64,000 nt of DNA from an uncultured Azospirillum sp. (GCA_965650625.1 CBFGPE010000004.1:23115-87114); one strand, 5' to 3'. Shown: positions 19,112-42,320, counted from the stretch's first letter. Notes: generated by a model from the sequence alone, not told the origin. Program-made: numbers and translations.

Positions 19112-20025
19112 CCTCCCGTTACAGCTTCGCGCCCGTCGGCGCACCGGCCGAGCGGCCGGTCTTCACCGGTACGGTGACTCTGCCGGCCGGCACCGAGGCG
19201 GCGCCGGGGTTGGTCTTCGCCGGCGACACCGCCACCGGCTTCCACCACCCTGCCCCCGGAATCGTCGGTCTGTCGGGGGCCTTGCAGGTCGACGGCCATC
19301 CTGTCTGGCACGCTGGGAACGACGGCGCCGGATCGGGGTGCGACGCCGACCTGCTCGACGGACAGCACGGCAGCTACTACCAGCCGGCCGCCCCCGCCCT
19401 GGGCGCCCTTGCCGGGCTGGACGCCGCCGTTGGGTTGGTCGAGCAGACCGGTTCCGCCCTGTTCGCCAAGCGCCCGCTCGGCACCGGATCGGCTGGCGCG
19501 GTCCCCACCCTGGGCGATGCCGACGCCCGCTATGCCCGGCTGAGCGGAGCGACCTTCGGCGGCGCCGTACGAAACACCGGACAACCCGCCTTCCTGGCCT
19601 TCCTGTCGTCTCAGCAATTGAACGCAACGGGGGATGGAACGCTCTACACCATCCCGTGCGATGGCGAGATCTTCGACCAGACCGGCGCCCACAACCCGGC
19701 AACCGGGATCTTCACCGCACCGGTGACCGGCTGCTACCGGTTCGACTGCACGGTCTGCCTGATCGTCGGCGCGACGCACACGCGCGCCGAACTGATCCTG
19801 GAGACGAGCAACCGCCTGCATTTCGTTGGTCAGATCAATGCGGCGGCCATGCGGGACGCGACCGGGAACGCGGTGATCATGGCCGGCTCCCGCCTCGTGG
19901 ACATGGATGCCGGGGACACGGCCGTGATGCGGGTCAAGGTTTCGAACGGCAGCAAGACTGTGTCGGTGTTCGGCACGACGGCGAGTGCGATCTACACGTC
20001 CTTCGCGGGGAGGCTGGAATGCTGA
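19108..20025 (+). CDS. Phage tail-fibre-like protein with C-terminal C1q-like domain
   Basis: Tail-fibre motif WHAGNDGAGSGCDADLLDG. C1q-like PAFLA...IFDQTGAHNPATGIFTAPVTGCYRF...LVDMDAGDT...YTSFAGRL. Confidence 0.75.
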   Translation: MTSRYSFAPVGAPAERPVFTGTVTLPAGTEAAPGLVFAGDTATGFHHPAPGIVGLSGALQVDGHPVWHAGNDGAGSGCDADLLDGQHGSYYQPAAPALGALAGLDAAVGLVEQTGSALFAKRPLGTGSAGAVPTLGDADARYARLSGATFGGAVRNTGQPAFLAFLSSQQLNATGDGTLYTIPCDGEIFDQTGAHNPATGIFTAPVTGCYRFDCTVCLIVGATHTRAELILETSNRLHFVGQINAAAMRDATGNAVIMAGSRLVDMDAGDTAVMRVKVSNGSKTVSVFGTTASAIYTSFAGRLEC

Positions 20026-20237
20026 GCGACCATCAGCGCGCCGTGCTGGCCGACATCGTCGTGGATCCGGATGCGTGGGCCGCCCATGTTCTGGATGAAT
20101 TCGGGCCGGAGGCCGGCATGGCCCACCTGGAGGCGAAGATCGCCCGGGCGGCCCCGGTGTACGAGGCCGCCCGCCAAACCCTGGGGTCGGCCTACCGGAC
20201 GCGAGCCGAGCGCACCGCCTTGCCCGGCGGACCCTGA
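20019..20237 (+). CDS. Small hypothetical protein (72 aa), possible tail-fibre partner
   Basis: MLSDHQRAVLADIVVDPDAWAAH...; overlaps the fibre gene stop. Confidence 0.6.
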   Translation: MLSDHQRAVLADIVVDPDAWAAHVLDEFGPEAGMAHLEAKIARAAPVYEAARQTLGSAYRTRAERTALPGGP

Positions 20238-20253
20238 TCGCAGGATGAAACTT

Positions 20254-20300
20254 GGGGTGTGATCGCTTCAAAACGATTCCCGACGAAGTGATCACGCCCC
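20254..20300. terminator. 16-bp stem-loop (two G-U pairs) downstream of the tail-fibre cassette
   Basis: ggggtgtgatcgcttc-N15-gaagtgatcacgcccc. No U-tract, so it may instead be a palindromic repeat element. Confidence 0.45.
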
Positions 20301-20473
20301 ATGCAACGCCGCCAAGGATTTCTATAGAAGGAAGAAATCTTGGAGAACCACAATAAATAGCCTGTTGATAGTTTAGTCAATTCAGGCGGTACTCATGCCG
20401 AAGATTTCAGTGGCGCTTTGCGCCCATCTCAAGTTAATTATCATCGATCTTCGCATTTGAAGGAAATTGACTG

Positions 20474-21061
20474 GTGGCTCGAATATTTATGATTCGCCAT
20501 GGCAAATCCGCAGCGGGCTTTGACGAAGCGCTCGATGCCGATCTGTCGGAGCTTGGGCATCGGCAGGCAGCAATTGCGGCTGCTGCGGTTGCCCGCCGGC
20601 TGCCTCCTATGCCGATCATCGCCTCTCCGTTTCGAAGAGCCAGAAGTACAGCGGAACCTTTGGCCAGGGCATGGTGCCGGCCAATCGCAATTTCCCCTGA
20701 GATTACTGAAATTCCAACGCCGCCTCATTTGGGAGAAGACAATCTTGCGGCACGCCGTCCATGGCTTACCGCCATCATGGCCAGCCGATACGGAAATCTC
20801 GGCGATGAAATTGAGAACTGGCGTCAGAACTTGATTGATTTCGTTGCGAACACGAAACAAAATTCTATTTTATCTACTCATTATCTGACGATCAACGCCA
20901 TCGTCGGGGCTGCGCAGAACGATGATCGGGTGTCTTTGTGCGACCCGGGATATTGTACCGTGACGGTGCTGGAGGTCTGTAGCGGCCGGATTTCCGTTAT
21001 CGGTATCGGCCTTGACTACGATCAACTTCCCGCTGCTTCTCCTGATTTCGAACGGAATTGA
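20474..21061 (+). CDS. Histidine phosphatase (phosphoglycerate mutase-like)
   Basis: MIRHG motif, IASPFRRARST, and LSTHYLTIN. GTG start. Confidence 0.85.
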   Translation: MARIFMIRHGKSAAGFDEALDADLSELGHRQAAIAAAAVARRLPPMPIIASPFRRARSTAEPLARAWCRPIAISPEITEIPTPPHLGEDNLAARRPWLTAIMASRYGNLGDEIENWRQNLIDFVANTKQNSILSTHYLTINAIVGAAQNDDRVSLCDPGYCTVTVLEVCSGRISVIGIGLDYDQLPAASPDFERN

Positions 21062-21144
21062 TGAATACTGCCAAGCTCTCTTGTTTTAAGCTTGGCAGTG
21101 CTCTTATGCAAATCCTGCGCGAAAGGGGAACGTGGACGGAGCGT

Positions 21145-21879
21145 TCAGGCGCCGTCCACAGTGCGAGGCAAGCAGGGCTCGTAACCGAGCAGGGCAATTT
21201 CGGCGCCCAGCTCCTTGTCCCACGACTCCAGGGCTTCAGGCGAGAACAGGCGGCGCCATTCGCCTGAAACCCCTTTGCGGACGATATAACGATTTCTCAC
21301 CATCTCGCCGTCCGAACCGCGCGGGCGGTTGGACATGGCCTCGAAGGAGTATTTCGTGTCGTAAAGAGAGCGGATCCTCTGCTCTAGTTCCGGATTGCGG
21401 GTAAATCCATAGAACTCAAGCACATCAAGCGTTACTCCAACAGTGTCCTGCTTAAGCTCGTCGAACTTTATGACCTTTATCGGCCTTTCCCGGGCCAGGT
21501 CTACCCACTTGCATGCCTCTCGGATCGTGTTGGCGAAATTACCGTAAGCCAATCCGTGTAGTGTCTCCCGCAGCTTTGCTCGATCGACAATCCCGCGGAA
21601 AATGTGATCCTCGAGATACGAAATAGCTACATCACGAGGGTCTCTTTGCAAGAAAACAATTGATACTTCTTCACGCTCAAGAAATGGGATGAAGAAGTCG
21701 GAATTATTGTGTGTCCAATGAAAATAAGGGCTTGGCGGCGGATCGTCGACGAGTCGTCTGGTTGATTCTGGGCCGTAATTCAGAACATTTACTTGTATCG
21801 TTCTGAGGTAATCCTCCAAAATCGGCACTATTGCTGAGGATCCTGAGTAAAACAAATTACAGAAGATCAAATTCTTCAT
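21145..21879 (-). CDS. Sulfotransferase domain protein (AT-richer than flanks)
   Basis: FYSGSS loop, QRDPRDVAIS, KFDELKQD, and VRKGVSGEW. GAGGAAG RBS before ATG 21879. Confidence 0.8.
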   Translation of the reverse strand: MKNLIFCNLFYSGSSAIVPILEDYLRTIQVNVLNYGPESTRRLVDDPPPSPYFHWTHNNSDFFIPFLEREEVSIVFLQRDPRDVAISYLEDHIFRGIVDRAKLRETLHGLAYGNFANTIREACKWVDLARERPIKVIKFDELKQDTVGVTLDVLEFYGFTRNPELEQRIRSLYDTKYSFEAMSNRPRGSDGEMVRNRYIVRKGVSGEWRRLFSPEALESWDKELGAEIALLGYEPCLPRTVDGA

Positions 21880-22062
21880 TTCTTCCTCAGAATCGGAGCA
21901 AATGGCTATGCTGAAAGGTATAGCAATCCCGGTGTCACATACCAATGGGAATTTTCCTGCCTGGAAGACGATGGAGCGGCGGGCCTCAGCGTCACAATGG
22001 CATCCGCTGGACAAGGCAAGGGTAACCGTCCTCCGGCAGAAGGGACACCGGGTTTGCGTGGC

Positions 22063-23160
22063 TCAAGGCCCGGCTTGCTCCGGAAACAGTCCAAGCAGCC
22101 CGTCGCGCGTGGCGGGGCAGACGCCGCGTTCGGTGATCAGGCCGGTCACCAGCCGGGCCGGGGTGACGTCGAAGCCGTAATTGGCGACCGGGCTGCCGTC
22201 GGGGGTGACGCGCACCGTCTCGATCCGGCCGTCGGCGGTGCGGCCGGTCAGCTCGCTCACCTCGCGGCCGTCGCGCTCCTCGATGGGGATCTCGCGCACG
22301 CCGTCGGCGATGGTCCAGTCGATGGTCGGCGACGGCAGTCCGACATAGAAGGGAACGCCGTTGTCGTGCGCGGCCAAGGCCTTCAGATAGGTGCCGATCT
22401 TGTTGCAGACGTCGCCGGTCGCGGTGGTGCGGTCGGTACCGACGATGCACAGATCGACCTTGCCGTGCTGCATCAGATGGCCGCCGACATTGTCGGCGAT
22501 GACGGTGTGGGGGACGCCGTGGTGCTTCAGCTCCCAGGCGGTCAGGCTGGCGCCCTGGTTGCGCGGGCGGGTCTCGTCCACCCAGACATGCAGCGGGATG
22601 CCCTGCTCGAAGGCGGCGTAGACGGGGGCGAGCGCCGTGCCCCAGTCGACGGTGGCGAGCCAGCCGGCGTTGCAGTGGGTCAGCACGTTGACCGGCTCCC
22701 CCGGCGCCTTGCGCGCCGCCGCGGCGCGGATCAGGGCTGCGCCGTGCAGGCCGATGGAACGGTTGATCTCGACATCCTCGTCGGCGATGGCCGCGGCCTC
22801 CGCCTCGGCGGCCGCGAGGCGTTGCGCCTCCGGCAGCGGCGCCAGCAGGCGGCGCATGCGCTCCAGCGCCCAGCGCAGGTTGACCGCGGTCGGGCGGGTG
22901 GCCAGCAGGGTGGCGCAGGCCCGCTCCAGCCCGCGGTCGCCGGCGTCGGCGCGCAGGGCCAGGGCCACGCCATAGGCCGCCGCGGCACCGATCAGCGGGG
23001 CGCCGCGCACCAGCATGGCGTGGATGGCGTGGGCGGCCTCCTCCAGGCTGGTCAGGCGGACGACGGCGAAGTCGTGCGGCAGCCGGGTCTGGTCGATGAT
23101 GGCGACGACGCCGTCGCCCTCCGGCCAGATGGTGCGATAGGCCATCCCGTCGATCCGCAT
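22063..23160 (-). CDS. mtnA: S-methyl-5-thioribose-1-phosphate isomerase
   Basis: [59 protein letters not shown], and NYGFDVTP. Confidence 0.93.
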
Positions 23161-23237
23161 GACATGACACTCCATCCAAAACCGAGCGGCCGAGATTAGG
23201 TGGTGGACGACCCGGCATCAATGCACTTGTGGCGCGA

Positions 23238-23367: not shown

Positions 23368-24279
23368 ATGAGCAACGGTGCAGTTGGCGGTGCAGTTGGC
23401 GAAACGGTTGGCGAGACTGTTCTGGGCGTGATCGGCGGCAGCGGCCTGTACGACATCGACGGGCTGGAGAACACCCGCTGGGTCAAGGTGACCACGCCCT
23501 TCGGCGACCCGTCGGACGAACTGCTGACCGGCGAACTGGCGGGTCAGAAGCTTGTCTTCCTGCCGCGCCATGGCCGCGGCCACCGCATCCCGCCGTCGGA
23601 GCTGAATTTCCGCGCCAACATCCACGCGCTGAAGCAGTTGGGCGTGACCGAGATCCTGTCGGTCTCCGCGGTCGGCTCGCTGAAGGAACATCTGCCGCCG
23701 GGCACCTTCGTGGTGATCGACCAGTTCATCGACCGCACCTTCGCCCGCGACAAGACCTTCTTCGGCAGCGGGCTGGTCGCCCATGTCGGGCTGGGCCATC
23801 CGGTCTGCGGCCGGCTGGGCGACCTGATCGAGCAGGCGCTGGTCGAGCTGGACATCCCGCACCAGCGGCGCGGCACCTACATGGTGATGGAGGGACCGCA
23901 ATTCTCCACCGTCGCCGAATCCAACCTCTACCGCAGCTGGGGCTGCGACGTCATCGGCATGACCAACATGCCGGAGGCCAAGCTCGCCCGCGAGGCGGAG
24001 ATGTGCTACGCGACCGTCGCCATGGTCACCGATTACGACTGCTGGCACGAGGGGCACGACCATGTGTCGGTCGAGGCGGTGATCAAGGTGGTGGTCGCCA
24101 ATGCCGGCAAGGCGCGCGCGCTGGTCTCGGCCCTGGCGCCGAAGGTGGCGGGGCGCGAGGGCACATGCGCCCAGGGCTGCCACACCGCGCTGGACAACGC
24201 CATCATGACCGCCCCCTCCCACCGCGATCCGGCGATGCTGGAAAAGCTGTCGCTGATCGTGAAGCGCACGCTGGGGTGA
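23368..24279 (+). CDS. mtnP: S-methyl-5'-thioadenosine phosphorylase
   Basis: GVIGGSGLY, TPFGDPS, FLPRHGRGH, NFRANI, EGPQFST, IGMTNMPEAKLAREA, and VTDYDCW. Confidence 0.93.
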   Translation: MSNGAVGGAVGETVGETVLGVIGGSGLYDIDGLENTRWVKVTTPFGDPSDELLTGELAGQKLVFLPRHGRGHRIPPSELNFRANIHALKQLGVTEILSVSAVGSLKEHLPPGTFVVIDQFIDRTFARDKTFFGSGLVAHVGLGHPVCGRLGDLIEQALVELDIPHQRRGTYMVMEGPQFSTVAESNLYRSWGCDVIGMTNMPEAKLAREAEMCYATVAMVTDYDCWHEGHDHVSVEAVIKVVVANAGKARALVSALAPKVAGREGTCAQGCHTALDNAIMTAPSHRDPAMLEKLSLIVKRTLG

Positions 24280-24365: not shown

Positions 24366-25535
24366 TCAGCGGCAGGCCGCGTCGAGGACCTTGTGCAGGC
24401 GGGTGATCTGCTCGTCGAGCGGGAAGGGGTGGTTGCCGACGAAGAAGCCCTGGTCATGCGCCAGATTGGCGTTCTCGACGCCACCGACCACCTCGTAATC
24501 GTAATGCTTGATCACGTCGTGGCGCAGGAAGCAGCCGCCGGTGATGATGCGGAAGCCGATGTCGGCCTCGGTCAGGGCGGCGAACACCGCCTTGCGGTCC
24601 TGCGGGCGCTTCGGGTTCAGGATGATGGTGAAGCTGAAGCAGGAGCTCTTGCCGTTCTCGCGCTGGATGATGAAGCGCTCATCCCCGGCGAACAGCGACT
24701 GGAACAGGGCCAGATTCTTGCGGCGCGCCTCGGTGAAGGCAGGCAGCTTCTTCAGCTGCTCCAGGCCGACGGCGCCTTCCATCTCGAGAGGACGGACGTT
24801 GTAGCCGGGCAGGATGAAGCGGTAGGCCTCGAAATGGTCGTTGCCGCCGCGCTGGTACAGCGGGGTGTCGTGCGGCAGGTCGCGGGTCCAGCCATGGGCG
24901 CGCATCGCCTTGACCAGATGGTAGAGCTCCAGATCGTCGGTCAGCACCATCCCGCCTTCCATGGTCGAGATGTGGTGCGAGAAGAAGAAGCTGAAGGTGT
25001 TCAGGTCGCCGAAGGTGCCGGTCTTCTTGCCGCCCAGCTCGGCATCCATCGATTCGCAGTTGTCCTCGATGAAATACAGCCCATGCTCGTCGGCGAAGCG
25101 GCGCATGACGTCGAGCGCGGCCGGGTTGCCCAGGATCGACACCGCCATGATCGCGCGGGTGCGCGGCGTCAGCGCCTGCTCCAGCTTGGAAACGTCCATG
25201 TTCAGCGTGTCGAGTTCGACGTCGATGAACTTCAGCTTCAGGCCGTACTGCTGCAGCGGGTGATAGGTGGTGGCCCAGGAGATCGCCGGGACGATCACCT
25301 CGTCGCCGCGCTGGAGCGGACGCTCCTTCTTGTAGAACAGGGCGGCGACCGCGACCAGATTGGCCGAAGAACCCGAATTGACCATCACGGCGTATTTGGC
25401 GCCGAAATAATTGGCGAAGGCCGCTTCGAAGGCGGCGACGTTCTCGCCCATGGTGAAGCGCCCGCTCTTCACCACGCGCTGGATCGCCTCAACCTCTTCC
25501 TCGCCCCAAGTCGGCGCGGCAAGCTCATAGAACAT
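24366..25535 (-). CDS. colD: ColD-like PLP-dependent GDP-4-keto-sugar 3-dehydratase (DegT family)
   Basis: SFFFSHHISTMEGG has His where aminotransferases have Lys. Also NSGSSANL, EDNCES, RAHGWTR, and LPGYNVRPLEM. Confidence 0.8.
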   Translation of the reverse strand: MFYELAAPTWGEEEVEAIQRVVKSGRFTMGENVAAFEAAFANYFGAKYAVMVNSGSSANLVAVAALFYKKERPLQRGDEVIVPAISWATTYHPLQQYGLKLKFIDVELDTLNMDVSKLEQALTPRTRAIMAVSILGNPAALDVMRRFADEHGLYFIEDNCESMDAELGGKKTGTFGDLNTFSFFFSHHISTMEGGMVLTDDLELYHLVKAMRAHGWTRDLPHDTPLYQRGGNDHFEAYRFILPGYNVRPLEMEGAVGLEQLKKLPAFTEARRKNLALFQSLFAGDERFIIQRENGKSSCFSFTIILNPKRPQDRKAVFAALTEADIGFRIITGGCFLRHDVIKHYDYEVVGGVENANLAHDQGFFVGNHPFPLDEQITRLHKVLDAACR

Positions 25536-25676
25536 GGATCATCCCCGGATGGTTCGGACGGCGGGACGGAAACCGTCCCCGCACGCCGCAGACGTGAGTG
25601 ACAAAAGCGGGGGAAGCCGGTCCGCGCAACCACCCGCTCCGGGAGACGCCTGGTGCAGTCCCCCGGAATGGCCCCC

Positions 25677-26747
25677 TTAGAACGGACCCTTGAACTGCGC
25701 CTGATAGGCCAGCCGGGCGTGCTCGGGATCCGGGCGCCAGGGCGAGCCGTTCGGCCGGGCCATGGCATAGGCCGCCTCGGCGATGGTCGACGGGTTGGGG
25801 TAGAAATGCTGCTCCAGCGCCGGCGTGGTCGGGCAGGTGGTGGGAGCGAAGCCCATGCGGCGGATCTGCAGCGGCCCGGAGCCGCCCAGACGCTCCGACA
25901 CCTGGGATGCGATCTCGGCACTGGCGCCGCAGTTGATCCAGCTGTTGTCGACCACCAGCAGCCGGCGGGTGCGGGCCACGGACTCCACGATGGTGTCGAT
26001 GTCCAGCGGAACCAGCGTGATCGGGTCGATCAGGTCGACGCTGACGTCGACCTCGCGCAGCAGCTCGGCGGCGCGCAGGCATTCGATCGCCATGTTCGAC
26101 ACGCCGACGACGGTGATGTCCCCGCCCTCCAGCATGCGGCGGGCCCGGCCGAACTCGACCGTGTAGGGGGCTTCCGGCACCGGCGCCTCGGTCGGATAGA
26201 GCAGGCGGTGCTCCATGAAGATGACCGGGTTGTCGTCGCGGATGGCCGCGATCATGCAGCCCTTGGCGTCATAGGCGTTGGACGGCGCCACCACCTTCAG
26301 CCCCGGCACATGCATGAACATCGAATGCAGGCCCTGCGAATGCTGCGCGCCCTGGCCCCAGGACTTGCCGATCATCGACCGGGCGACCAGCGGCACCTTC
26401 ACGGCGCCGCCATACATGTAATGGGCCTTGGCCGCCATGTTGACGAGCTGGTTCATGCACAGCAGCAGGAAATCCATGCGGATGTGGACATGGATCGGCC
26501 GCATCCCGGCCATGGCGGCGCCGATGGCGACGCCGGTCATCGCATCTTCCGACAGAGGCGTGGTGAAGATGCGCTCCGGCCCGAAGCGCTCCAGCAGGCC
26601 GCGGGTCGATCCCTGGATCGCCTTGTGGTCGTCGACGTCGAGACCGAAGACGAAGACGCTCTCGTCGCGCGCCATTTCCTGGGATACGGCCTCGGCCAGG
26701 GCGTCGACATAGCGGAGCTGGCGCGTCGCGGCGTTAGGCGAAGACAT
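25677..26747 (-). CDS. TPP-dependent dehydrogenase E1 beta-like subunit
   Basis: FTTPLSED, GMRP, GQGAQHSQ, PGLKVVAPS, IRDDNPVIFMEHR, and LVVD. Confidence 0.88.
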   Translation of the reverse strand: MSSPNAATRQLRYVDALAEAVSQEMARDESVFVFGLDVDDHKAIQGSTRGLLERFGPERIFTTPLSEDAMTGVAIGAAMAGMRPIHVHIRMDFLLLCMNQLVNMAAKAHYMYGGAVKVPLVARSMIGKSWGQGAQHSQGLHSMFMHVPGLKVVAPSNAYDAKGCMIAAIRDDNPVIFMEHRLLYPTEAPVPEAPYTVEFGRARRMLEGGDITVVGVSNMAIECLRAAELLREVDVSVDLIDPITLVPLDIDTIVESVARTRRLLVVDNSWINCGASAEIASQVSERLGGSGPLQIRRMGFAPTTCPTTPALEQHFYPNPSTIAEAAYAMARPNGSPWRPDPEHARLAYQAQFKGPF

Positions 26748-27690
26748 GACGGTACAGCTCCTCGGCGGCGGGGAAGGGGCTTTGCTCGGCGAAGGCGACG
26801 GCGGCGTCGACGGCGGCCTGGGCTTCCGCCTCGATGGCGGCGCGCTCCGCCTCCGGCAGCAGGGCGGCGATGCGCGGCACCTCGTCGCGGGCCTCCCACG
26901 GCTCCATTTCCGTCCGCGGACGGTAGCCCTGGTCGTAATCCTCGTTCGGGCCGACATGCTCGCGCCAGCGGTAGGCGTGGCATTCGATCAGCGCCGGCCC
27001 TTCGCCGCGGCGCAGCTTGGCCACCAGTTCGGCCGCGGTGTCGCGGACCTCGAACAGGTCGCCCGACGTGATCTTGCGCGCGTCGATGCCGAAGGTGGCG
27101 ACCCGCTCGCAGAAGCGGTCGGTCGCCCAGCGCTTCGTCTGCGGCTCGTGGATGGCGTAGAAGTTGTTCTCGCAGACGAACAGGATCGGCAGCTTGTGCA
27201 GCGCCGCGAAGTTCAGCGTCTCGTAGAAGCAGCCCTCCTCCGACGCGCCGTCGCCGAAGAAGGCGACGACGACCCGGTCGGTCTTCTGCCGCTTCAGGGC
27301 GAGGGCGTAGCCGGCGGCGATCGGGATCGTCGTGCCGACCACGGCGGAGGCGCCGAGCACATTGGCCTTGGTGTCGATCAGATGCATGGAGCCGCCGCGC
27401 CCGGCGGCGCTGCCGGTCGCCTTGCCGAACATCTCGGCCATCATCGCGGCCGGATCGCCGCCCTTCGCCAGATAGGCGGCATGTCCGCGATAGGTGCCCG
27501 ACACGGCGTCGTCCTGTCGCAGAACGTCGCAGACACCGACCGAGATGAACTCCTGGCCGATGGAGAGGTGCACCGGGCTCTTGATCCTGTCCGAAGGGTA
27601 GATCGCAGCCACCCGCTCTTCGTAATGGCGGATGAAGTAGAGGGAGCGGTACAGCCTAGCGATGGTCTCCGGGGTATACTGGGATGTCAT
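26734..27690 (-). CDS. TPP-dependent dehydrogenase E1 alpha-like subunit
   Basis: HLSIGQE, TYRGH, GRGGSMH, TPP motif FFGDGA...ENN, and YRWREH. Confidence 0.88.
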   Translation of the reverse strand: MTSQYTPETIARLYRSLYFIRHYEERVAAIYPSDRIKSPVHLSIGQEFISVGVCDVLRQDDAVSGTYRGHAAYLAKGGDPAAMMAEMFGKATGSAAGRGGSMHLIDTKANVLGASAVVGTTIPIAAGYALALKRQKTDRVVVAFFGDGASEEGCFYETLNFAALHKLPILFVCENNFYAIHEPQTKRWATDRFCERVATFGIDARKITSGDLFEVRDTAAELVAKLRRGEGPALIECHAYRWREHVGPNEDYDQGYRPRTEMEPWEARDEVPRIAALLPEAERAAIEAEAQAAVDAAVAFAEQSPFPAAEELYRHVFA

Positions 27691-28054
27691 TGATACGGAT
27701 CCCGCGAAGAGGTGAAGAAAGGCCACGATCCAGTCGCGATGATGAGGCTGCGCACAAAGACCTCTTTCCGAAGGTCGAAGGCACACCGCCGGATCCCACG
27801 CCACATCGAATAGCATACGCCAAAGGCCACATGCTTTTACCCCGCCATTCCGTAATGAATCAAGGGTTCCTGCAGGGCCGCAATTTGTCCGGCAAATAAT
27901 CCATTGATATCGTCATTGGACGATATCCCAGGCGGGAAAGGCTTGTTACAGAGTTATAATATGGGAATATGTGAGTATGTGGGGACGGCCGGACCCGCTC
28001 TTCCAGCCCGGCCGCCCCCCCTTTATGCCATCCCGAATGACCGTGCTATGGCGC

Positions 28055-29002
28055 TCAGACGACGTTGCCGTAGACCGCGTTGCGGATCATGCGGTAACCC
28101 TTGATCAACTCCTGGATGCCGTCGTCGAGCGAGAAGGCGGGCTTGTAGCCGGTCGCCTCGATCCGCTCGTTGGAGACGATGTAGTCGCGCTTGTCCGGAT
28201 CCTCGCCGATCGGCGCCTCCAGGAAGACGAACTTCGGCAGGTGCTTGTGGATGCGCTCGCACAGTTCCCACTTCGACAGGTTGGCGTCGGACAGGCCCAC
28301 ATTGTAGGGGCGGCCCTGCATCGTCTCGAAATTGTCCAACCCGTGCAGGAAGGCGCGGGCCACGTCGCGGACATGGATGTAGTTGCGCTTGAAGTGCGGC
28401 TCGAACAGCACCACGGCGCGGTCGTTGACGGCACGGTAGACGAAGTCGTTGACCAGCAGGTCGATGCGCATGCGCGGCGCCATGCCGAACACGGTGGCCA
28501 GACGGAAGCTGATCGAGTTGCCGCGGTCCAGCACCGCCTTCTCGGCCTCGACCTTGGTCCGGCCATAGAGCGAGATCGGATTCAGCGGGCTGTCTTCGGT
28601 GCAGAACTTGCCCTGTTCCCCGACCCCGTAGCCGGAGTTGGTGACCGGCATCACCAGGCGCTGCGACGGCGACAGAATCCTGGTGAGGGTGACCACCGCG
28701 TCGCGGTTGATGGTCTCGGCTCCGATCTTGTCGGCGTCGCACAGCGGGGCGCCCACCAGCGCCGCCAGCGGGATGACGACGTCGGCGGTCTTCGTCAGGC
28801 TGCGCAGGGTGGCTTCGTCACGGGCGTCGCCGCGGACCAGATCGAACTTCGGGTTGACGCAGACATGGCTCAGCGACGCCTGACGGAACATGAAGCTGTC
28901 GAGCACGGTCACCGAATGGCCGGCGTCGAGCAGCGCCGGAACCATGATCGAGCCGAGATAGCCGGCACCGCCGGTGACGAGGATGTTCAGGGACTGGGAC
29001 AT
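28055..29002 (-). CDS. SDR NAD-dependent dehydrogenase, Cj1427-like (GDP-heptose 4-dehydrogenase candidate)
   Basis: TGGAGYLG, IPLAALVGAPLC, TNSGYG, YGRTK, FRLATVFG, RMRIDLLVNDF, and GEDPDKRDY, all as recalled for C. jejuni Cj1427. Confidence 0.8.
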   Translation of the reverse strand: MSQSLNILVTGGAGYLGSIMVPALLDAGHSVTVLDSFMFRQASLSHVCVNPKFDLVRGDARDEATLRSLTKTADVVIPLAALVGAPLCDADKIGAETINRDAVVTLTRILSPSQRLVMPVTNSGYGVGEQGKFCTEDSPLNPISLYGRTKVEAEKAVLDRGNSISFRLATVFGMAPRMRIDLLVNDFVYRAVNDRAVVLFEPHFKRNYIHVRDVARAFLHGLDNFETMQGRPYNVGLSDANLSKWELCERIHKHLPKFVFLEAPIGEDPDKRDYIVSNERIEATGYKPAFSLDDGIQELIKGYRMIRNAVYGNVV

Positions 29003-29133: not shown

Positions 29134-29253
29134 AACGCGCCGCGGCATTGGTAGTCCGGCAACCCTTGAGGGCGCAAGGACTGTGTGGACGGGCGGAAAG
29201 GCGCCGTGATAGGTGGATCGCTCCCGCTTCCGGCACAGAACGCGTATCGCCCC

Positions 29254-30558
29254 ATGAGCATGCCCATCCACGGCACCATCGGCACGCCGCCCGGCGTCCC
29301 CTCCGATGCGGCGGCTGCCGTTTCCGCTCCGCCGCTTCCCCGCCAATGCGTCATCCTGGTCGGCGGTCTCGGCACCCGGCTTGGGGACCGCACGCGCCTG
29401 ACGCCGAAGCCCCTGCTGGAGGTGGCGGGCAAGCCGTTCCTCGATCACCTGATCGGCAATCTCGCCCGTTTCGGCTTCGAGCGGGTGCTGCTGCTGGGCG
29501 GCTACCGGGGCGAGGTGCTGCGCGACTATTGCGCCGCGGCGGCCACGGAGGACGGCCGGTCGAGCCGCTTCGGCGTCGCGCTCTCCTGCCTGATCGAGGG
29601 GGAGCCGGCCGGCACCGGCGGCGCCCTGGTCCAGGCCGGCGATGCGCTGGACGAGCGCTTCCTGCTGCTGAACGGCGATTCCTTCTTCGACATCAACTAT
29701 CTGGATCTGACGGCGCCGCTCGGCGACGGGATGCTGGCACGGGTGGCACTGCGCCGGGTGGAGGATGCGGCGCGCTACGGCGCCGTCCGCCTGGAGGGCG
29801 AGCGGATCCGCGCCTTCGCCGAACGGCCGGAGCAGGGGGGCGAGGGGCTCATCAACGGCGGCATCTATTGGATGGACCGCCGCATCCTCGACCATATTCC
29901 CGCCGGCTCCTGTTCGCTGGAGCGCGACGTGCTGCCCAGGCTGGCCGAACGGGGCGAACTGGCCGGGCGCTGCTATGACGGCGCCTTCATCGACATCGGC
30001 ATTCCCCAGGATCTGGCGCGGGCCGACGGGCTGGCCGCCGGATGGCACCGCCGGCCCGCCGCCTTCCTCGACCGCGACGGGGTGCTGAACCTCGATCACG
30101 GCTATGTCCACCACCGGGGCCATTTCGAGTGGGTCGACGGGGCGGTGGACGCCGTCAAGCTGCTGAACGACCGCGGCTATTACGTCTTCCTCATCACCAA
30201 CCAGGCGGGCGTCGCCCACGGCCATTACGACGAGGAGGCGATCCACGCCCTCCATGGCTGGATGCGGGAGGAACTGCGCCGCAACGGCGCCCATCTCGAC
30301 GACGTCCGCTATTGCCCCTACCACCCGGAGGGGGCGGTCGAGCGCTACCGCCGCGCATCCGACTGGCGCAAGCCGGAGGCGGGCATGCTGCGCGACCTGA
30401 TGGCCCATTGGCCGGTGGAGACCACCGGCAGCTTCGTCATCGGCGACCACGACACCGACATGGCCGCCGCAAGGGTCGCCGGCGTTGCCGGCCACCTGTT
30501 CACCGGCAGCAACCTGCTGGAGCGGGTGCGCGCCATTCTGGGCGAGAACGGGGGCTGA
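29254..30558 (+). CDS. hddC: Bifunctional HddC-like heptose-1-P nucleotidyltransferase / GmhB heptose-bisphosphate phosphatase
   Basis: LVGGLGTRL...TPKPLL...GTGGAL...NGDS...FIDIGIP followed by HAD domain FLDRDGVLN, TNQAG, CPYHP, RKP, and IGD. Confidence 0.88.
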   Translation: MSMPIHGTIGTPPGVPSDAAAAVSAPPLPRQCVILVGGLGTRLGDRTRLTPKPLLEVAGKPFLDHLIGNLARFGFERVLLLGGYRGEVLRDYCAAAATEDGRSSRFGVALSCLIEGEPAGTGGALVQAGDALDERFLLLNGDSFFDINYLDLTAPLGDGMLARVALRRVEDAARYGAVRLEGERIRAFAERPEQGGEGLINGGIYWMDRRILDHIPAGSCSLERDVLPRLAERGELAGRCYDGAFIDIGIPQDLARADGLAAGWHRRPAAFLDRDGVLNLDHGYVHHRGHFEWVDGAVDAVKLLNDRGYYVFLITNQAGVAHGHYDEEAIHALHGWMREELRRNGAHLDDVRYCPYHPEGAVERYRRASDWRKPEAGMLRDLMAHWPVETTGSFVIGDHDTDMAAARVAGVAGHLFTGSNLLERVRAILGENGG

Positions 30559-30588: not shown

Positions 30589-32628
30589 TCAGCCCGCCGG
30601 CAGGATGAAGCCCTGCGGCGGCCGGCTGGCGCTGTGCAGCGACCACATGACCTGATAGGCGCGTTCCAGGTTGCGGGTGAAGCGGCGGCTGTCGAACAGC
30701 GGCACCGTCATCCGCCCGTCCTCCAGCCGCTTGCGCAGGGCAGCACGCCGTCCGGAATCACCGGCGAGCGCCACCGCCATCTCCTCATACTCGGCCAGCG
30801 AGCGGGTGACGGTGTCGGGCAGGCCGGCGGCGTTCAGCAGGCTGGCCGCCACCCGCGAGGCGAAGGTGCCGCCGAGGCACGTCACCACCGGGCAGCCCGC
30901 CCATAGCGCGTCGCTGGTGGTGGTGTGGCCGGTGTAGGGCAGGGTATCGAGCGCCAGATCGGCGACGCGGTAGCGGGCGATGTGGTCCGGCAGCGGGCGG
31001 GGCGGCGCGAAGACCAGCCGGGCCGGATCGATGCCCTGGGCCTTGGCCGACGCCGTCAGGTTGGCGGCCGCCAACGGGTTGGCCTCGAACAGCCACAGCA
31101 CCGATCCGGGCACGCGCTTCAGGATGCGCATCCACAGGCCGAACATCGCCGGGCTGATCTTGTAGGCGGTGTTGAAGGCGGCGAAGACGACGCCGTCCTC
31201 CGGCAGGCCGCAGTCGGCCCGGGACGGCACCGTGTCGGGCAAGGGGCGGTGGCGGTCGTTGATCTGATAGGCGTCGGGCAGGATCGCCAGCCGCTCGGCA
31301 TAGAAGGGCTGGTGGTCCGGCGGGGTGACGAAGCGGTCGCCGATCACATAGTCCATGTGCGGGCAGCCGATGGTGCCGGGATAGCCCAGGTAACTGACCT
31401 CGACCGGCGCCAGCCGGCGCGACAGCAGGTCGAGCCGGGTCTGCTTCGTGTAGCCCTTCAGGTCGACCATGATGTCGACGCCGTCGTCGGCCATGCGACG
31501 GGCGACGGCATCGAGCGGCACGCTGCGGATGTCGCGGAAATGGTCGAAGGCCTGGACCAGCCGTTTGCGCATCGCGCTGCCGTCGTCGGGCCCGTAGGAA
31601 TAGGCCAGCACCTCGAACCGCTCGCGGTCATGCAGTTCGAACAGTTCGGCCGCCAGATAGGCGGTGGCGTGCTCGTGGAAATCGGCCGAGACATAGGCGA
31701 CGCGCAGCCGGCCGTCGCGGCGCGGCTCCGGCCGCGCCGGCATCGGCGGCGACGAGGCGCGCTTGATCAGCCGGTCGAAGAACATCCGGGCGGCGCGGTC
31801 CTGCTGGGCCGGCGTGGTGTCGATCGACAGGGCGGCCAGCGGGATGACCACGCCGGCGTCGCGGTCGATGGTGTCCGTCACCATCCGGCAGAGGCGGTCG
31901 TAATCGCCCCAGGCGCACAGCGTCTGCTTGAGATACAGGTGGTAGCACAGCGCCTCGGTCTTGGCCGGGGTCAGCGTCACCGCCCGGTCGTAGGCCGTGT
32001 GCGCCTCGGCGAAGCGCCCCAGCTCGCGCAGGACATGGGCGTAGCCCAGCATCGCCTCGCCATGGCCGGGATCGGCGACCAGTGCCCGACGCAGCGCGCG
32101 CTTCGCCTCCGCCACGCGATGGCCTTCGCGCAGGGCCACGCCGAGGTTGGCGGCGGCGAGCGCATCGATGGGACGCAGCCGCAGCGCGCGGGCGAAGTCG
32201 ATCGCCGCTCCGTCGCGGTCGCCCAGCGTCAGCCGGGCCGAACCGCGGTTGACATAGCCTTCCGGTGCGGCGGGGCCCAGCAGGACGCAGCGGTCGTGGG
32301 CGGCCAGGGCCTCGCCCATGCGGCCCAGCGACTGCAGCACGGTTCCGAGATTGCCGTGGCTGTCGGCCAGGTCGGGCCGGACGGAGATCGCCTGCCGCAG
32401 GATGGCTTCCGCCTCCTGCGGCCGGCTCTGCATCATCACCGCCACGCCCAGCAGCTGGAGGACCTCGCCCTGGTTGGGAACGGCATCCAGGATCGCCCGG
32501 CACAGCCGTTCGGATTCCGTGGCCCGGCCGGCCCGGAAATGATCGAGCGCCAGTCGCGCCGCATCGGTGATGGTCATGGTCGCCGGGGGAGGCCCGGAAG
32601 GCGGTGCGGAAGGCGTTGCAGCGGTCAT
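30589..32628 (-). CDS. TPR + O-GlcNAc transferase-like (GT41/SPINDLY) protein
   Basis: TPR helices, then RLRVAYVSADFHEHAT, VDLKGYT, SYLGYPGT, FAAFNTAYKI, LDTLPYTGHTTTSDALWAGCPV, and FASRVAASLL. Confidence 0.9.
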   Translation of the reverse strand: MTAATPSAPPSGPPPATMTITDAARLALDHFRAGRATESERLCRAILDAVPNQGEVLQLLGVAVMMQSRPQEAEAILRQAISVRPDLADSHGNLGTVLQSLGRMGEALAAHDRCVLLGPAAPEGYVNRGSARLTLGDRDGAAIDFARALRLRPIDALAAANLGVALREGHRVAEAKRALRRALVADPGHGEAMLGYAHVLRELGRFAEAHTAYDRAVTLTPAKTEALCYHLYLKQTLCAWGDYDRLCRMVTDTIDRDAGVVIPLAALSIDTTPAQQDRAARMFFDRLIKRASSPPMPARPEPRRDGRLRVAYVSADFHEHATAYLAAELFELHDRERFEVLAYSYGPDDGSAMRKRLVQAFDHFRDIRSVPLDAVARRMADDGVDIMVDLKGYTKQTRLDLLSRRLAPVEVSYLGYPGTIGCPHMDYVIGDRFVTPPDHQPFYAERLAILPDAYQINDRHRPLPDTVPSRADCGLPEDGVVFAAFNTAYKISPAMFGLWMRILKRVPGSVLWLFEANPLAAANLTASAKAQGIDPARLVFAPPRPLPDHIARYRVADLALDTLPYTGHTTTSDALWAGCPVVTCLGGTFASRVAASLLNAAGLPDTVTRSLAEYEEMAVALAGDSGRRAALRKRLEDGRMTVPLFDSRRFTRNLERAYQVMWSLHSASRPPQGFILPAG

Positions 32629-34136
32629 CGTCCGCCCTCCGGGGCGGAGAGTGCCGCCACCTCCGCCGTCACTGCCGCCGTCACCCTGGCCATCACCTCG
32701 GCCCAATCGTTGGACGTCGCCTGACGGAACAGGCGCATGGTCGGATACCAGGGGCTGTCGAGCCGGTCACGCATCCAGCGCCAGTCGGCGAACCATTTCA
32801 GCACCACCCAGGTCGGCCGCCCCATGGCGCCGGCGAGATGGCAGACCGAGGTGTCGCAGGTGATGACCAGATCGAGGTTGGCCATCACCGCGGCGGTGTC
32901 GAGGAAGGCGTCCGGGCCGGCATCGAAATCCACCCCCAGCTCCGTCACCGCCACCCGGTCGCGCAGCCGCTGCAGATGGTCGAGGCCCGACACCTTCTGC
33001 AGGCTGTAGAGCCGGACGCCGGGCAGCCGGCCCATCGCCTCGAAACACTCCAGCGGGATCGACTTGCCGGTCTCGTTGCCGTGCCAGTTGATGCCGACGC
33101 GCAAGGCCGGGCGCCTGCCGCCCTCCAGCCGCTCCAGCCGCTCCGCCCAGCGGGCCGCCAGCTCCGGCTCGGCGCGCAGATAGGGCACGCCGCCGGGGAC
33201 GTTGTCCGGCGTGGTGCCCAGCCGGTGCATCAGGCTCATCAGCGAGACGTAATAATCATAGGCCGGCAGCGGCTCGCCGAAGGCGAACAGCCCGTCCAGG
33301 TCGGGGGCGGTCGACAGCACCCGCTTCAGCGCCGGCTGGCATTCGTAGAGCACCCGCGCGCCCATTCGCTTCAGCACGCCGGCATAGCGGATGTACTGGA
33401 AGGAGTCGCCCAGCCCCTGTTCGAAATGCACCAGCAGCGTCTTGCCGGCCAGCGGCTGGCCCTGCCACAGCACGCCCGGCATGTTGCGCTTGCGCCAGAC
33501 CCCCTGCTCCAGCCGGCCTTCGTAGGCGACGGTGCCGTTGGGATAGTCGCCGGCCATCAGCAGGCAGGTGCCGAGATTCTTGCGGTATTCCGGCTTTCCG
33601 ACATCGATGGCGAGCGCACGGCGGTAGTGCCGCGCCGCCTCCGGCGGAAGACCGAGACTGAGGTTGACCGCGCCCAGGTTGTTGCAGTTGACGGCCACGT
33701 CCGGTTCGACGGCAAGCGCCAGCCGGTAGACGGCGCGGGCCTTTTCCCCGTCGCCGGTGAACATGAACAGGTTGCCGAGCGTCAGCAGCGCCCCCGGATG
33801 ATCCGGCTTCAGGCGGGCCAGTTCCCGGAAGGCGATCAGCGCATGGTCGAAGTTGCGCTGGTCCATCAGGATGCCGCCCAGTGCGTTCAGCACGTCCGGA
33901 TAGGCGGGGCGCAGGCGCAGCGCCTGGCGCAGCGGCTCCATCGCCTCGTCCGGGCGGCCGGCGGCACGCAGGCAGAGACCGAGGTTGCCGTGCAGGTTGG
34001 CGACGCCGGGATGCTCTTCGGCCAGCCGGCGGAAGGTATCGGCCGCTTCGACGAAGCGCCCGCTCTGGAACAGGGCGGCGCCGTGGTTGAAGGCCTGAAT
34101 GAAGGCCGGCGAGAACTCGGAAATGGCAACCCCCAA
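32625..34136 (-). CDS. TPR + GT9-like glycosyltransferase
   Basis: TPRs, WQGQPLAGKTLLVHFEQGLGDSFQYIRY, DLVITCDTSVCHLAGAMGRP, and DWRW...SPWYPTMRLFRQ. Start uncertain (TTG 34136). Confidence 0.85.
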   Translation of the reverse strand: MGVAISEFSPAFIQAFNHGAALFQSGRFVEAADTFRRLAEEHPGVANLHGNLGLCLRAAGRPDEAMEPLRQALRLRPAYPDVLNALGGILMDQRNFDHALIAFRELARLKPDHPGALLTLGNLFMFTGDGEKARAVYRLALAVEPDVAVNCNNLGAVNLSLGLPPEAARHYRRALAIDVGKPEYRKNLGTCLLMAGDYPNGTVAYEGRLEQGVWRKRNMPGVLWQGQPLAGKTLLVHFEQGLGDSFQYIRYAGVLKRMGARVLYECQPALKRVLSTAPDLDGLFAFGEPLPAYDYYVSLMSLMHRLGTTPDNVPGGVPYLRAEPELAARWAERLERLEGGRRPALRVGINWHGNETGKSIPLECFEAMGRLPGVRLYSLQKVSGLDHLQRLRDRVAVTELGVDFDAGPDAFLDTAAVMANLDLVITCDTSVCHLAGAMGRPTWVVLKWFADWRWMRDRLDSPWYPTMRLFRQATSNDWAEVMARVTAAVTAEVAALSAPEGGR

Positions 34137-34268
34137 CGCTTCGGCCCCAACAAAGCCCCGCCCGCGCGGATGGACCTGCCGCACGGAACCGCGGCTTCTT
34201 ACCCCAAGAGCCCGGTCGGCGGCAATAAAGGGCTGCCCTTTCCGGTTCCGGGGCCTTACCGCCCAGCC

Positions 34269-39999: not shown

Positions 40000-41736
40000 T
40001 CAGGCGGCGGGCCCGCCGCATTGCTCCTCGCACCAGCGGCGCCACATCAGCCGGTAGGCGCTCTCCAGATTGCGCATGAAGCGCGCCTCGTCGCACAGCG
40101 CCGAGGTCCGGACCCGCTCGCGCATGCCCATCCGCAGCCGCATCAGCCGGCCGAGGTCGCCGGCCAGTTCGGCGGCGATGGCGGCATAGCGGTCGGGGGT
40201 GGCGGCGACCAGCTCCGGCAGGCCGATGGAGGCCATCAGGCTGGAGCCGACGCGGGCGGCATGCCGTCCCCCCGCCAGCGTGACCAGCGGCGCCCCCATC
40301 CACAGCGTGTCGCAGGTGGTGATGGTGCCGTTGTAGGGGTGCGGATCCAGCGCGATGTCGATCCGGTTGTAGGCGGCGAGATGGCCCGCCGCGTCCTTGA
40401 TGAAGCCGACGAGGTCGAGCCGGTCCGGGTCGATGCCGGCGGCGGCGAAACGCCCCCGCAGCCCGGCGGCGGTGCCGGGATCGGACAGCGGCCGGTCCTT
40501 CAGCAGCAGGCGGGATTTCGGCACCCGCCGCAGCACCTCCGCCCACAGCTGGACCGTCTGGTCGGTGATCTTGGACAGCTTGTTGAAGGAGCCGAAGGTG
40601 ACGTGTCCGGTCGCTCCGGCCGGCAGCGGCACCACCGCCGGCGCATCGGACGGCGGACGGAAGCACAGGAAGGGCGGCGGCAGCCGCACCAGCGTCTCCA
40701 CCGCATGGCCGTCGGTGGAGCCGACCGGATCGCTGACCGGATCGACGATGCGGTAGCCGACCGTCTCCATGCCGGTGCCGTTGGGATAGCCCAGCCACGT
40801 CACCTGCACCGGCGCCGGCCGGTGGGCCAGCATCGGCAGCCGGTTCAGCCCGGAATGGCCGGCGAGGTCGACCAGGATGTCGATGCCGTCGGCCCGGATC
40901 AGCCCGGCGAGGGCGGCATCGTCCAGATGGCCCACCGTGCGCCAGCCGTCGGCCTGCGCCTTGAAGCGGGCGGTGTAGGCGTCGGCATGGGTGTCCGGCA
41001 GGATCGAATAGCAGACGATCTCGAAGCGGCTGCGGTCGGCGGCCTCGAACAGCGGCGTGAGGAAATAGGCGCCCAGATGCTCGCGGAACTCGACCGACAG
41101 GTAGCCGATGCGCAGCCGCCTCTCCGGGTCGGGTCGGTTGACGTGGGCCGCCGGTGCCGCGGCCGGCCGGCCGAAGCGCTCATCGAAGCGGCGGTGCTCG
41201 GCCAGCAGCCGGTCGCCGGGAAGCTCGAGGTAGTTCAGGCAGAGCAGCCGCTGGCTGGCGATGCGCGGATCGCCGGGAGCCAGCCTTTCGGCCCGGCCGA
41301 AACACAGGGCCGCCGCCGCCGCCTCGCCGCGCATCTGCCGGACCACGCCCAGGTTGAACCACAGGTTGGCTTCCTGGTTCGGGTCGGCCTGGATCGCCCG
41401 GCTCCACAGCCGCACCGTCTCGTCCAGCCGGTCGTTGCCGTAGGCGTCGCCGCCCAGCCCGACCCAGGGCCTGGCGTAATCCGGCCTGAGAGCCAGGGCG
41501 CGGCGCAGCGCCGCCACCCCCTCGGCAGGCCGGCCGAGTTCGCCCAGGACGAAGCCCAGGTTGTTCCACAGGTCGGCCGCCATGCCGTCCCCGGCCAGCA
41601 GCTCGCGGTAGAGCGACGCGGCCTCCTCCAGCCGTCCGCCGACGAAGGCGTCGAGCGCCCGGCGCTTCAGGGCTTCTCTTGAGGATGGAGGAGCGGAAGA
41701 CGGCTGGGCGGCGGAGGGAACGGTGGGCAGGGACAT
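40000..41736 (-). CDS. Second TPR + O-GlcNAc transferase-like (GT41) protein
   Basis: RLRIGYLS, VDLAGHS, QVTWLGYPNGTG, FGSFNKLSKI, and LDPHPYNGTITTCDTLWMGAP. TGATG overlap with gmhA. Confidence 0.9.
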   Translation of the reverse strand: MSLPTVPSAAQPSSAPPSSREALKRRALDAFVGGRLEEAASLYRELLAGDGMAADLWNNLGFVLGELGRPAEGVAALRRALALRPDYARPWVGLGGDAYGNDRLDETVRLWSRAIQADPNQEANLWFNLGVVRQMRGEAAAAALCFGRAERLAPGDPRIASQRLLCLNYLELPGDRLLAEHRRFDERFGRPAAAPAAHVNRPDPERRLRIGYLSVEFREHLGAYFLTPLFEAADRSRFEIVCYSILPDTHADAYTARFKAQADGWRTVGHLDDAALAGLIRADGIDILVDLAGHSGLNRLPMLAHRPAPVQVTWLGYPNGTGMETVGYRIVDPVSDPVGSTDGHAVETLVRLPPPFLCFRPPSDAPAVVPLPAGATGHVTFGSFNKLSKITDQTVQLWAEVLRRVPKSRLLLKDRPLSDPGTAAGLRGRFAAAGIDPDRLDLVGFIKDAAGHLAAYNRIDIALDPHPYNGTITTCDTLWMGAPLVTLAGGRHAARVGSSLMASIGLPELVAATPDRYAAIAAELAGDLGRLMRLRMGMRERVRTSALCDEARFMRNLESAYRLMWRRWCEEQCGGPAA

Positions 41737-42320
41737 CAGACCAGTCGGGCTTCGACCTGTTCGCACAGATAATGGTACAGGCAGATATGGACCTGCTGGA
41801 TCAGCGGGGTGGAGCGCGACGGCACGTCGAGCAGGATGTCGCTCAGGGCCGCCATCTTGCCGCCGCCCTCGCCGGTCAGCGCGATGGTGGTCATGCCCAG
41901 GCTCTTGGCCACCTCGAAGGCGGCGATGACGTTGCGCGAATTGCCGCTGGTCGAGATGCCCAGGATGACGCCGCCCTGCTCGCCATAGGCCTCGGTCTGG
42001 CGGGAGAAGACGGTGTCGTAGGAATAGTCGTTGCTCCAGGCGGTCAGCACCGCCGGGTTGGAGCTGAGGCAGATCGCCTTCAGGCCGCGGCGCTCCTTCA
42101 GGAAGCGGCCGACCAGCTCGCCGGTGATGTGCATGGCGTCCGACGCCGAGCCGCCGTTGCCGCAAACCAGCAGCGCCTTGTTGGCGCCGAGCGCCGCGGT
42201 GACGGCGGCGATCGCCGCCTCGACCCGGGCGGGATCCAGGCTGTCCATGGTGCGCTGCAGGACATCGATGGCGGCGGTGAAGCAGCCGTGCAGGGCGGCG
42301 GCGGAGTCCTGAGAGGCCAT
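41736..42320 (-). CDS. gmhA: Sedoheptulose-7-phosphate isomerase (SIS domain)
   Basis: CGNGGSASDAMH, TAWSNDY, GISTSGNSRNV, LTGEGGG, and IQQVH. Confidence 0.9.
   Translation of the reverse strand: MASQDSAAALHGCFTAAIDVLQRTMDSLDPARVEAAIAAVTAALGANKALLVCGNGGSASDAMHITGELVGRFLKERRGLKAICLSSNPAVLTAWSNDYSYDTVFSRQTEAYGEQGGVILGISTSGNSRNVIAAFEVAKSLGMTTIALTGEGGGKMAALSDILLDVPSRSTPLIQQVHICLYHYLCEQVEARLV

Follow-up and report, generated by a model that had tools for sequence, protein, structure and literature searches.

Four consecutive genes in the window, a 64-kb stretch of DNA from an uncultured Azospirillum sp. (GCA_965650625.1, CBFGPE010000004.1:23115-87114), encode a predicted Cj1427-type GDP-heptose C4-dehydrogenase, the alpha and beta chains of a thiamine diphosphate (ThDP)-dependent E1 enzyme and a predicted ColD-type sugar 3-dehydratase. 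The cassette to which they belong most likely converts an activated seven-carbon sugar to a 3-deoxy sugar with a two-carbon branch. Specifically, we propose, with a probability of roughly 0.6, that these genes would constitute the core of a GDP-heptose tailoring pathway, predicted from homology and gene context, in which oxidation at C4 and deoxygenation at C3 are followed by addition of a pyruvate-derived two-carbon unit by the E1 pair. All four genes (24366-29002) lie on the minus strand, are intact and show the codon bias of real genes of a replicon of ~68% G+C. At the protein level, the window shares ~98% identity with plasmid AZO_p6 of Azospirillum lipoferum 4B, where the cassette genes (among them AZOLI_RS29270, RS29250 and RS29260/RS29255) carry generic annotations only. 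Their lengths are the same there as in the window, which bears out the gene calls of an earlier, sequence-only reading of this DNA.

The ColD-type protein (24366-25535, minus strand; 389 aa) is a predicted pyridoxal/pyridoxamine phosphate (PLP/PMP)-dependent GDP-4-keto-sugar 3-dehydratase with a DegT_DnrJ_EryC1 domain (Pfam PF01041, 6.8e-82), and NCBIfam likewise assigns it to the DegT family. Of the solved structures, E. coli ColD matches it best by far (2GMS; 49% identity over 382 aa, residues 3-384; E=3e-121), and CDP-sugar 3-dehydrase E1 is a distant second (2e-54). In the motif S186-H187-H188, His187 occupies the position where true aminotransferases of the same alignment have a lysine, and it lines up with the position changed in the H188N mutant of ColD (3B8X), marking the first histidine of S-H-H as the catalytic one. 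Almost every DegT gene of the related loci keeps this histidine, and all those that adjoin an E1 pair do so; these loci are the best 80 of more than 575 relatives of E1 alpha obtained in a scan of one genome per species, each with a flank of up to 10 kb. A more divergent tier of the cassette (loci L034-L047 and L049-L055, with E1 alpha 50-57% identical) encodes, in place of the ColD ortholog, DegT proteins only 31-45% identical to the ColD-like enzyme, with 33-37% identity in Nitrospirota, Cyanobacteriota, Myxococcota, Chloroflexota and others, and in almost every case these have a histidine at the position of the PLP-binding lysine (motifs AHI, AHH and GHH). By their sequence, they would represent a second 3-dehydratase lineage recruited into the same pathway, and since the histidine is kept even in these proteins, C3 deoxygenation of a 4-keto sugar looks constant in the pathway.

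The dehydrogenase gene (28055-29002, minus strand) encodes an extended short-chain dehydrogenase/reductase (SDR; Pfam Epimerase, 9.8e-29) with the NAD-site motif GAGYLG at 12 and the catalytic motif YGRTK at 146. Among solved structures it matches 6VO6, presumably the Cj1427 structure of Huddleston et al. 2020, at E=1.5e-113 with 55% identity over 305 aa, the next SDR scoring 1.4e-18. Both family assignments of the sequence-only reading therefore stand. The order of events it had supposed, GDP-heptose C4 oxidation and then C3 deoxygenation, is strongly supported by the two homologies, by the conserved heptose-activation genes described below and by an in vitro precedent: Cj1427 and the HS:5 C3-dehydratase of Campylobacter jejuni together yield GDP-D-glycero-4-keto-3-deoxy-heptose, a compound then unknown from nature (PMC10680097). 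The C. jejuni homolog of the dehydrogenase has a tightly bound NADH that is recycled by alpha-ketoglutarate and involves no 6-deoxygenation, and the PLP-dependent C3-dehydratase consumes L-glutamate and releases alpha-ketoglutarate (PMC10680097).

Between these two genes lies the E1 pair. E1 alpha (26734-27690, minus strand; 318 aa) matches Pfam E1_dh at 2.6e-58 and the human pyruvate dehydrogenase (PDH) E1 alpha in the PDB at 2.8e-41, and has an intact ThDP motif (GDG...NN, 147-177); against the NCBIfam family PDH_E1_alph_y it scores 300 bits, under the cut-off of 394. E1 beta (25677-26747, minus strand; 356 aa) is composed of Transket_pyr and Transketolase_C domains (Pfam), matches E1 beta chains in the PDB at 4e-62 to 5e-58 and keeps the cofactor-activating glutamate (TPLSE, 63) and a histidine (AQHSQ, 134). 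The stop of the alpha gene and the start of the beta gene overlap by 14 nt. E1 beta further bears a C-terminal extension of ~30 aa (window 25677-25770) that ends in F-K-G-P-F. An invariant tail of the form F-[KRT]-G-P-F-COOH is found in the heptose cassette and a sister clade (loci L007-L055, L056, L067, L070, L074-L076, L079 and L090), and the extension is absent from the E1 beta paralogs of the same genome outside its two sugar clusters, E2-linked ones included, and from several other fetched E1 beta clades. This tail may act as a gate to the active site or cover the surface on which E2 docks.

As the sequence-only reading had noted, the pair has no E2 or E3 beside it: tblastn with three E2 probes and an E3 fragment from its own genome gave no match in the 64-kb window or in the 80 related loci. 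The genome encodes five other E1 alpha paralogs, one of which adjoins a lipoyl-domain AcoC-type gene and another an E2 with a 2-oxoacid_dh domain. In a maximum-likelihood tree, all E1 alphas of the 80 loci group in a single supported clade (99/94); four of the five other paralogs, both E2-linked ones included, lie outside this clade and the fifth, from a second sugar cluster, lies inside it. The E1 alphas linked to heptose genes make up a clade of 50 rows (100/98), whose thorough mixture of phyla indicates horizontal spread. We also considered loss of the lipoyl-related histidines as a marker of E2 independence; both are conserved, so this marker says nothing. The same genome holds a second orphan E1 alpha/beta pair (G000:C32:24500-33500, locus L090), whose chains are 44% and 41% identical to those in the window and which has the same GPF tail. 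Its neighbors are two Lys-type-looking DegT aminotransferases, an LmbE-like deacetylase, a GmhB-like phosphatase, a transaldolase-like gene and an SDR, and this cluster may specify a different higher-sugar pathway.

Gene neighborhoods tie the E1 pair to the sugar genes. In the 11 closest related loci with room on both sides of the pair, a ColD-type gene (>60% identity) and a Cj1427-type gene each stand beside it in 10, an HddA-like kinase in eight, and a B12-domain radical S-adenosylmethionine (SAM) enzyme and a GDP-fucose-synthase-like SDR in five each. The grouping of the E1 pair with the ColD-type and Cj1427-type genes is not by chance. The usual order elsewhere is E1a-E1b-dehydratase-dehydrogenase-SDR-radical SAM-HddC-HddA, and homologs of GmhA and GmhB recur. 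Synteny of the first four genes is kept in Alphaproteobacteria, Acidobacteriota, Gammaproteobacteria and Vulcanimicrobiota, with homologs of HddA, HddC, GmhA and GmhB attached, and more divergent versions of the cassette occur in Nitrospirota, Cyanobacteriota, Myxococcota, Chloroflexota and others. These four genes make up only one half of the conserved cassette; the kinase, the radical SAM enzyme and the fucose-synthase-like SDR at 2.2-6.3 kb also belong to it. In the window it is split, with the genes for a Nudix protein, the HddA-like kinase, the radical SAM enzyme and the SDR at 1.5-6.3 kb, ~20 kb off, and that for GmhA at 41.7 kb. The E1 pair has a patchy, accessory distribution, being present in 23 of 121 Azospirillaceae, and the 120 best-matching named relatives of the dehydratase and of E1 alpha come from Azospirillum or from metagenomes; the plasmid collection gave no match from Trinickia caryophylli.

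Taken as a pathway, the Cj1427-type SDR would oxidize GDP-heptose at C4, with alpha-ketoglutarate reoxidizing the bound NADH. The ColD-type enzyme, using PLP and L-glutamate, would then remove the C3 hydroxyl to give GDP-3-deoxy-4-keto-heptose, alpha-ketoglutarate and ammonia, and we infer that alpha-ketoglutarate couples the dehydratase and dehydrogenase steps. The E1 pair is predicted to decarboxylate pyruvate on ThDP and to pass the hydroxyethyl carbanion to the C4 ketone, generating a 4-C-acetyl tertiary alcohol; such ThDP-dependent two-carbon addition at the C4 ketone is our best inference for the role of the pair. The fucose-synthase-like SDR and the HpnJ/BchE-like radical SAM enzyme may tailor the product through reduction or epimerization and a radical step, respectively, and the sugar would presumably be transferred to a surface or protein glycan by neighboring glycosyltransferases. 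Since the radical SAM enzyme, the fucose-synthase-like SDR and the HddA-like kinase belong to the cassette, the end product is probably more elaborate than a simple branched sugar.

Parts of this enzyme set have counterparts in characterized systems. The capsular GDP-heptose modification systems of C. jejuni share the GmhA/HddA/GmhB/HddC activation steps, a Cj1427 homolog, a ColD-type 3-dehydratase and a reductase of the GDP-fucose-synthase family (Cj1428-type there). However, they have neither a ThDP enzyme nor a radical SAM enzyme, and the natural 3-deoxy route of C. jejuni starts from a 4,6-dehydratase product and not from the Cj1427 product. ColD of the GDP-colitose pathway (E. coli O55 WbdK) resembles the dehydratase over its full length, and the two have in common the catalytic histidine in place of the Schiff-base lysine and the GDP nucleotide. 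In colitose clusters ColD stands with GDP-mannose 4,6-dehydratase and ColC, whereas the partner here is a Cj1427-type dehydrogenase, and thus C6 would keep its hydroxyl and the sugar would be a heptose.

For the ThDP enzyme itself, the sequence-only reading had invoked YerE, and this precedent holds for the chemistry: in the YerE/YerF pathway to yersiniose A (and likewise with ErwE and MygE), a His-type PMP/PLP 3-dehydratase, ThDP-dependent acyl-anion addition at C4 and then a reduction act in sequence, the acceptor of YerE being a 3-deoxy-4-keto nucleotide sugar (PMC9306805). It does not hold for homology. YerE is a single-chain, flavin-containing ThDP enzyme of the decarboxylase superfamily that acts on a CDP-3,6-dideoxyhexose, whereas the ThDP enzyme here is split into E1 alpha and beta, for which the E1-type alphaKADH2 pairs are probably the homologous precedent. 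These include AviB1/AviB2 (avilamycin), Plm8/Plm9 (paulomycin), KbDH-alpha/beta (kibdelomycin) and the aldgamycin and kosinostatin enzymes, all of them two-subunit, PDH-E1-like, without E2 or E3 and encoded among genes that form ring ketones on nucleoside diphosphate (NDP)-sugars. Such pairs put a pyruvate-derived two-carbon branch on C3 or C4 ketones of NDP-sugars to give a tertiary alcohol, as shown in vitro for KbDH (PMC4802897, PMC12247030). Their substrates are the dTDP-deoxyhexoses or -pentoses of Actinomycetota secondary metabolites, whereas here the substrate is likely a GDP-heptose that would go into cell-surface or protein glycans of many Gram-negative and other phyla. A 2025 review ascribes the branching of lipopolysaccharide (LPS) sugars to YerE-like enzymes only and assigns alphaKADH2 pairs to antibiotics (PMC12247030), and we found no literature linking Cj1427-type or GDP-heptose pathways to thiamine enzymes. 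The only actinomycete E1 relative fetched, a pair on a Streptomyces plasmid, was discarded as a sugar-branching comparator, its neighbors being condensation-domain, acyl-carrier-protein and ketosynthase genes and not sugar genes.

Several points weigh against the proposed branching of a GDP-heptose at C4. The functions assigned to the cassette are predicted from sequence and gene context, and the likeness of the E1 pair to AviB, Plm and KbDH is one of subunit make-up and gene setting. The HddA, HddC, GmhB and GmhA matches all fall under the NCBIfam equivalog cut-offs. Both active-site histidines used for lipoyl acylation by E1 enzymes are conserved, and a lipoyl-type acceptor is compatible with the sequence. 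The conserved fucose-synthase-like SDR is of the kind that reduces C4 ketones; if it does so here, then C4 cannot be the branching site. Finally, the frameshift of this reductase in the present genome may leave the strain with an altered or inactive pathway.

The reductase gene (5294-6255, minus strand) encodes a GDP-L-fucose-synthase-like SDR of the C4-reductase/epimerase type, which matches GDP-fucose synthase in the PDB at 1.7e-95 and NCBIfam Fcl at 430 bits (cut-off 500). Split tblastn frames place its Rossmann N-terminus (6133-6255) out of frame with the remainder (5294-6130), and an 8-bp insertion relative to the intact A. lipoferum 4B gene (RS29165; WP_014189869.1) splits the reading frame: near 6145-6152 the window has three CAGCCGCT units against two diverged units in 4B. 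The insertion could be an assembly error of this 271-contig draft; the 8-bp repeat expansion looks genuine, however, and the strain may make a different or truncated product owing to the frameshift.

The radical SAM enzyme (3400-4920, minus strand; 506 aa; RS29160 in 4B) joins a B12-binding to a Radical_SAM domain (Pfam), with the motif CPYKCSFC at 234. The nearest NCBIfam families are HpnJ (1e-48) and BchE (1e-43), with P-methylases and AprD4 (9e-25) scoring lower and all of them far under their cut-offs. It is not a member of the HpnJ family (166 bits against a cut-off of 578), its context being heptose and not hopanoid genes; the best solved relative is AprD4 (3e-18, PDB). In 401 evenly drawn alphaproteobacterial genomes, E1 alpha orthologs are present in 22 and radical SAM matches in 18. 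All 16 genomes with radical SAM matches of at least 52% identity have the E1 pair (Fisher p=7e-22), two genomes have weak matches (42% identity) without it, and up to six of the 22 have the E1 pair without the radical SAM enzyme; where both occur, the genes are mostly 1-8 kb apart on the same contig. Since the radical SAM enzyme is seen only with the E1 pair, while the pair occurs without it, the pattern fits a radical step on, or after, the ThDP product.

This dependence bears on an alternative that we entertain only tentatively, namely that the cassette is a route to carbocyclic nine-carbon higher sugars of the caryose type (4,8-cyclo-3,9-dideoxy-nonose). The first four steps would be shared with the proposed GDP-heptose pathway, the ThDP pair making the C4-C8 bond, and the radical SAM enzyme would then join heptose C7 to the acetyl carbonyl (C8). 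The caryose of Trinickia (Burkholderia) caryophylli LPS is 3-deoxy, as the dehydratase would leave it, has a C4 quaternary carbinol, as expected from ThDP addition, and contains nine carbons, a terminal methyl and a five-membered carbocycle. The features of this sugar are thus those predicted from the enzyme set, with the C8 carbinol and C9 methyl deriving from pyruvate and the ring from C7-C8 closure. We know of no report of caryose from Azospirillum. The biosynthesis of caryose is reported as unknown, and HpnJ, which with BchE is among the families nearest to the radical SAM enzyme, has a genetic link to the conversion of a sugar into a five-membered carbocycle (PMC9092360). Among the carbocycle-forming radical SAM enzymes (HpnJ, calditol synthase and PtmC), HpnJ is the nearest named family, although it acts on a lipid-linked hexosamine. 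Strict dependence of the radical SAM orthologs on the E1 pair would follow from such a scheme, but no radical SAM gene lies within 10 kb in about half of the closest loci, most radical SAM enzymes with a B12 domain are methylases, and the fucose-synthase-like SDR finds no clear place in it. Moreover, the scheme, its stereochemistry included, is purely retro-biosynthetic.

In another reading, the ThDP pair extends or modifies the heptose side chain: an AprD4-like radical SAM enzyme would dehydrate the C6-C7 diol, the E1 pair would add the two-carbon unit to the new carbonyl and the SDR, a conserved partner of C4-reductase type, would reduce the C4 ketone. Among solved structures the radical SAM enzyme is closest to AprD4, which is also matched among the NCBIfam families, but HpnJ and BchE score far above it there. 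The occurrence of E1 pairs without the radical SAM enzyme, and not the reverse, argues that the E1 step is independent of the radical step, and the known alphaKADH2 sugar enzymes all act on ring ketones (PMC12247030). We accordingly regard side-chain modification as unlikely. It is very improbable that the pair is an ordinary catabolic E1 (for pyruvate, acetoin or a branched-chain keto acid) using host E2/E3, or one with a supporting role such as keto-acid decarboxylation, that lies in a sugar cluster by accident: the generic PDH or acetoin E1 annotation and the conserved lipoyl-related histidines would suit it, but the pair is kept inside a sugar operon across many phyla, has no E2 or E3 near it throughout the 80 loci, is patchily distributed, and falls in a clade distinct from the other E1 alphas of its own genome, two of which are E2-linked and which include separate E1 pair clusters beside an E2-type gene.

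Bradyrhizose, with its C4 carbinol and C4-C9 ring (PMC9912281), was also considered as a product and rejected. This sugar keeps O-3. The cluster proposed to make it centers on a dTDP-glucose 4,6-dehydratase homolog (PMC4743980), and there is no Bradyrhizobium among the 80 best loci.

If the proposed GDP-heptose pathway is correct, E1-type ThDP carboligases are not confined to the sugars of actinomycete antibiotics but also build GDP-heptose-derived cell-surface sugars in hundreds of species from many phyla, a use that the 2025 review does not mention (PMC12247030). The product would be an undescribed 3-deoxy, C-branched and possibly carbocyclic higher sugar, and its enzymes would give new biocatalytic access to chiral tertiary alcohols on nucleotide sugars. 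Were the product of the caryose type, sugars of this kind would be found widely among bacterial phyla and not be the curiosity of a single plant pathogen. The presence of the cassette on AZO_p6 of the culturable, non-pathogenic, plant-growth-promoting A. lipoferum 4B makes these predictions directly testable, and the result may bear on root colonization. The present instance adds complete-genome relatives, a split arrangement, a patchy distribution and a natural reductase frameshift.

The heptose-activation genes of the cassette are dispersed over the window. Immediately beyond the dehydrogenase gene, a divergent gene (29185-30558, plus strand) encodes a fusion of an HddC-like sugar-1-phosphate guanylyltransferase and a GmhB-like heptose bisphosphate phosphatase (Pfam NTP_transferase and HAD), which matches NCBIfam GmhB at 1.1e-42 and HddC at 1.8e-34. 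The HddA-like GHMP sugar kinase (2203-3210, minus strand; NCBIfam HddA 1.6e-39) has homologs of 50-65% identity that adjoin the E1 pair in other phyla. It forms a shared unit with a Nudix hydrolase (1542-2222, minus strand), which has weak NCBIfam Nudix matches, is annotated as a NUDIX hydrolase in 4B and is possibly a GDP-sugar hydrolase; a 43%-identical homolog follows the cassette in locus L028. GmhA, the sedoheptulose-7-phosphate isomerase of the first heptose-activation step (41736-42434, minus strand; NCBIfam gmhA 1.7e-57, 194 bits against a cut-off of 209), belongs to a family that adjoins the E1 pair in nine other loci. An AT-rich intergenic spacer of 364 nt (27691-28054) separates the E1 alpha and dehydrogenase genes and is the probable promoter region of the E1a-E1b-dehydratase unit, though no strong consensus promoter was scored in it.

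A phosphoramidate-type gene set and glycosyltransferases of the TPR-GT41 type lie next to the split cassette in the window. Genes for two TPR-GT41 (OGT-like) proteins and for one TPR protein whose C-terminus is GT9-like flank the heptose genes on the minus strand, at 30589-34184 and 40000-42165, and in view of these the product of the cassette may be attached to protein rather than to LPS. On the other side, plasmid-borne genes for MtnA (methylthioribose-1-phosphate isomerase; 22063-23175, minus strand) and methylthioadenosine (MTA) phosphorylase (23368-24279, plus strand) directly adjoin the dehydratase gene, and could salvage 5'-deoxyadenosine or MTA from the radical SAM enzyme and other SAM-dependent enzymes of the island. 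Beyond them, a sulfotransferase-domain gene (21145-22014, minus strand) lies within a patch of 54% G+C (20001-22000) in the ~68% G+C replicon, a sign that foreign DNA may recently have entered between the fibre/C1q and sugar genes.

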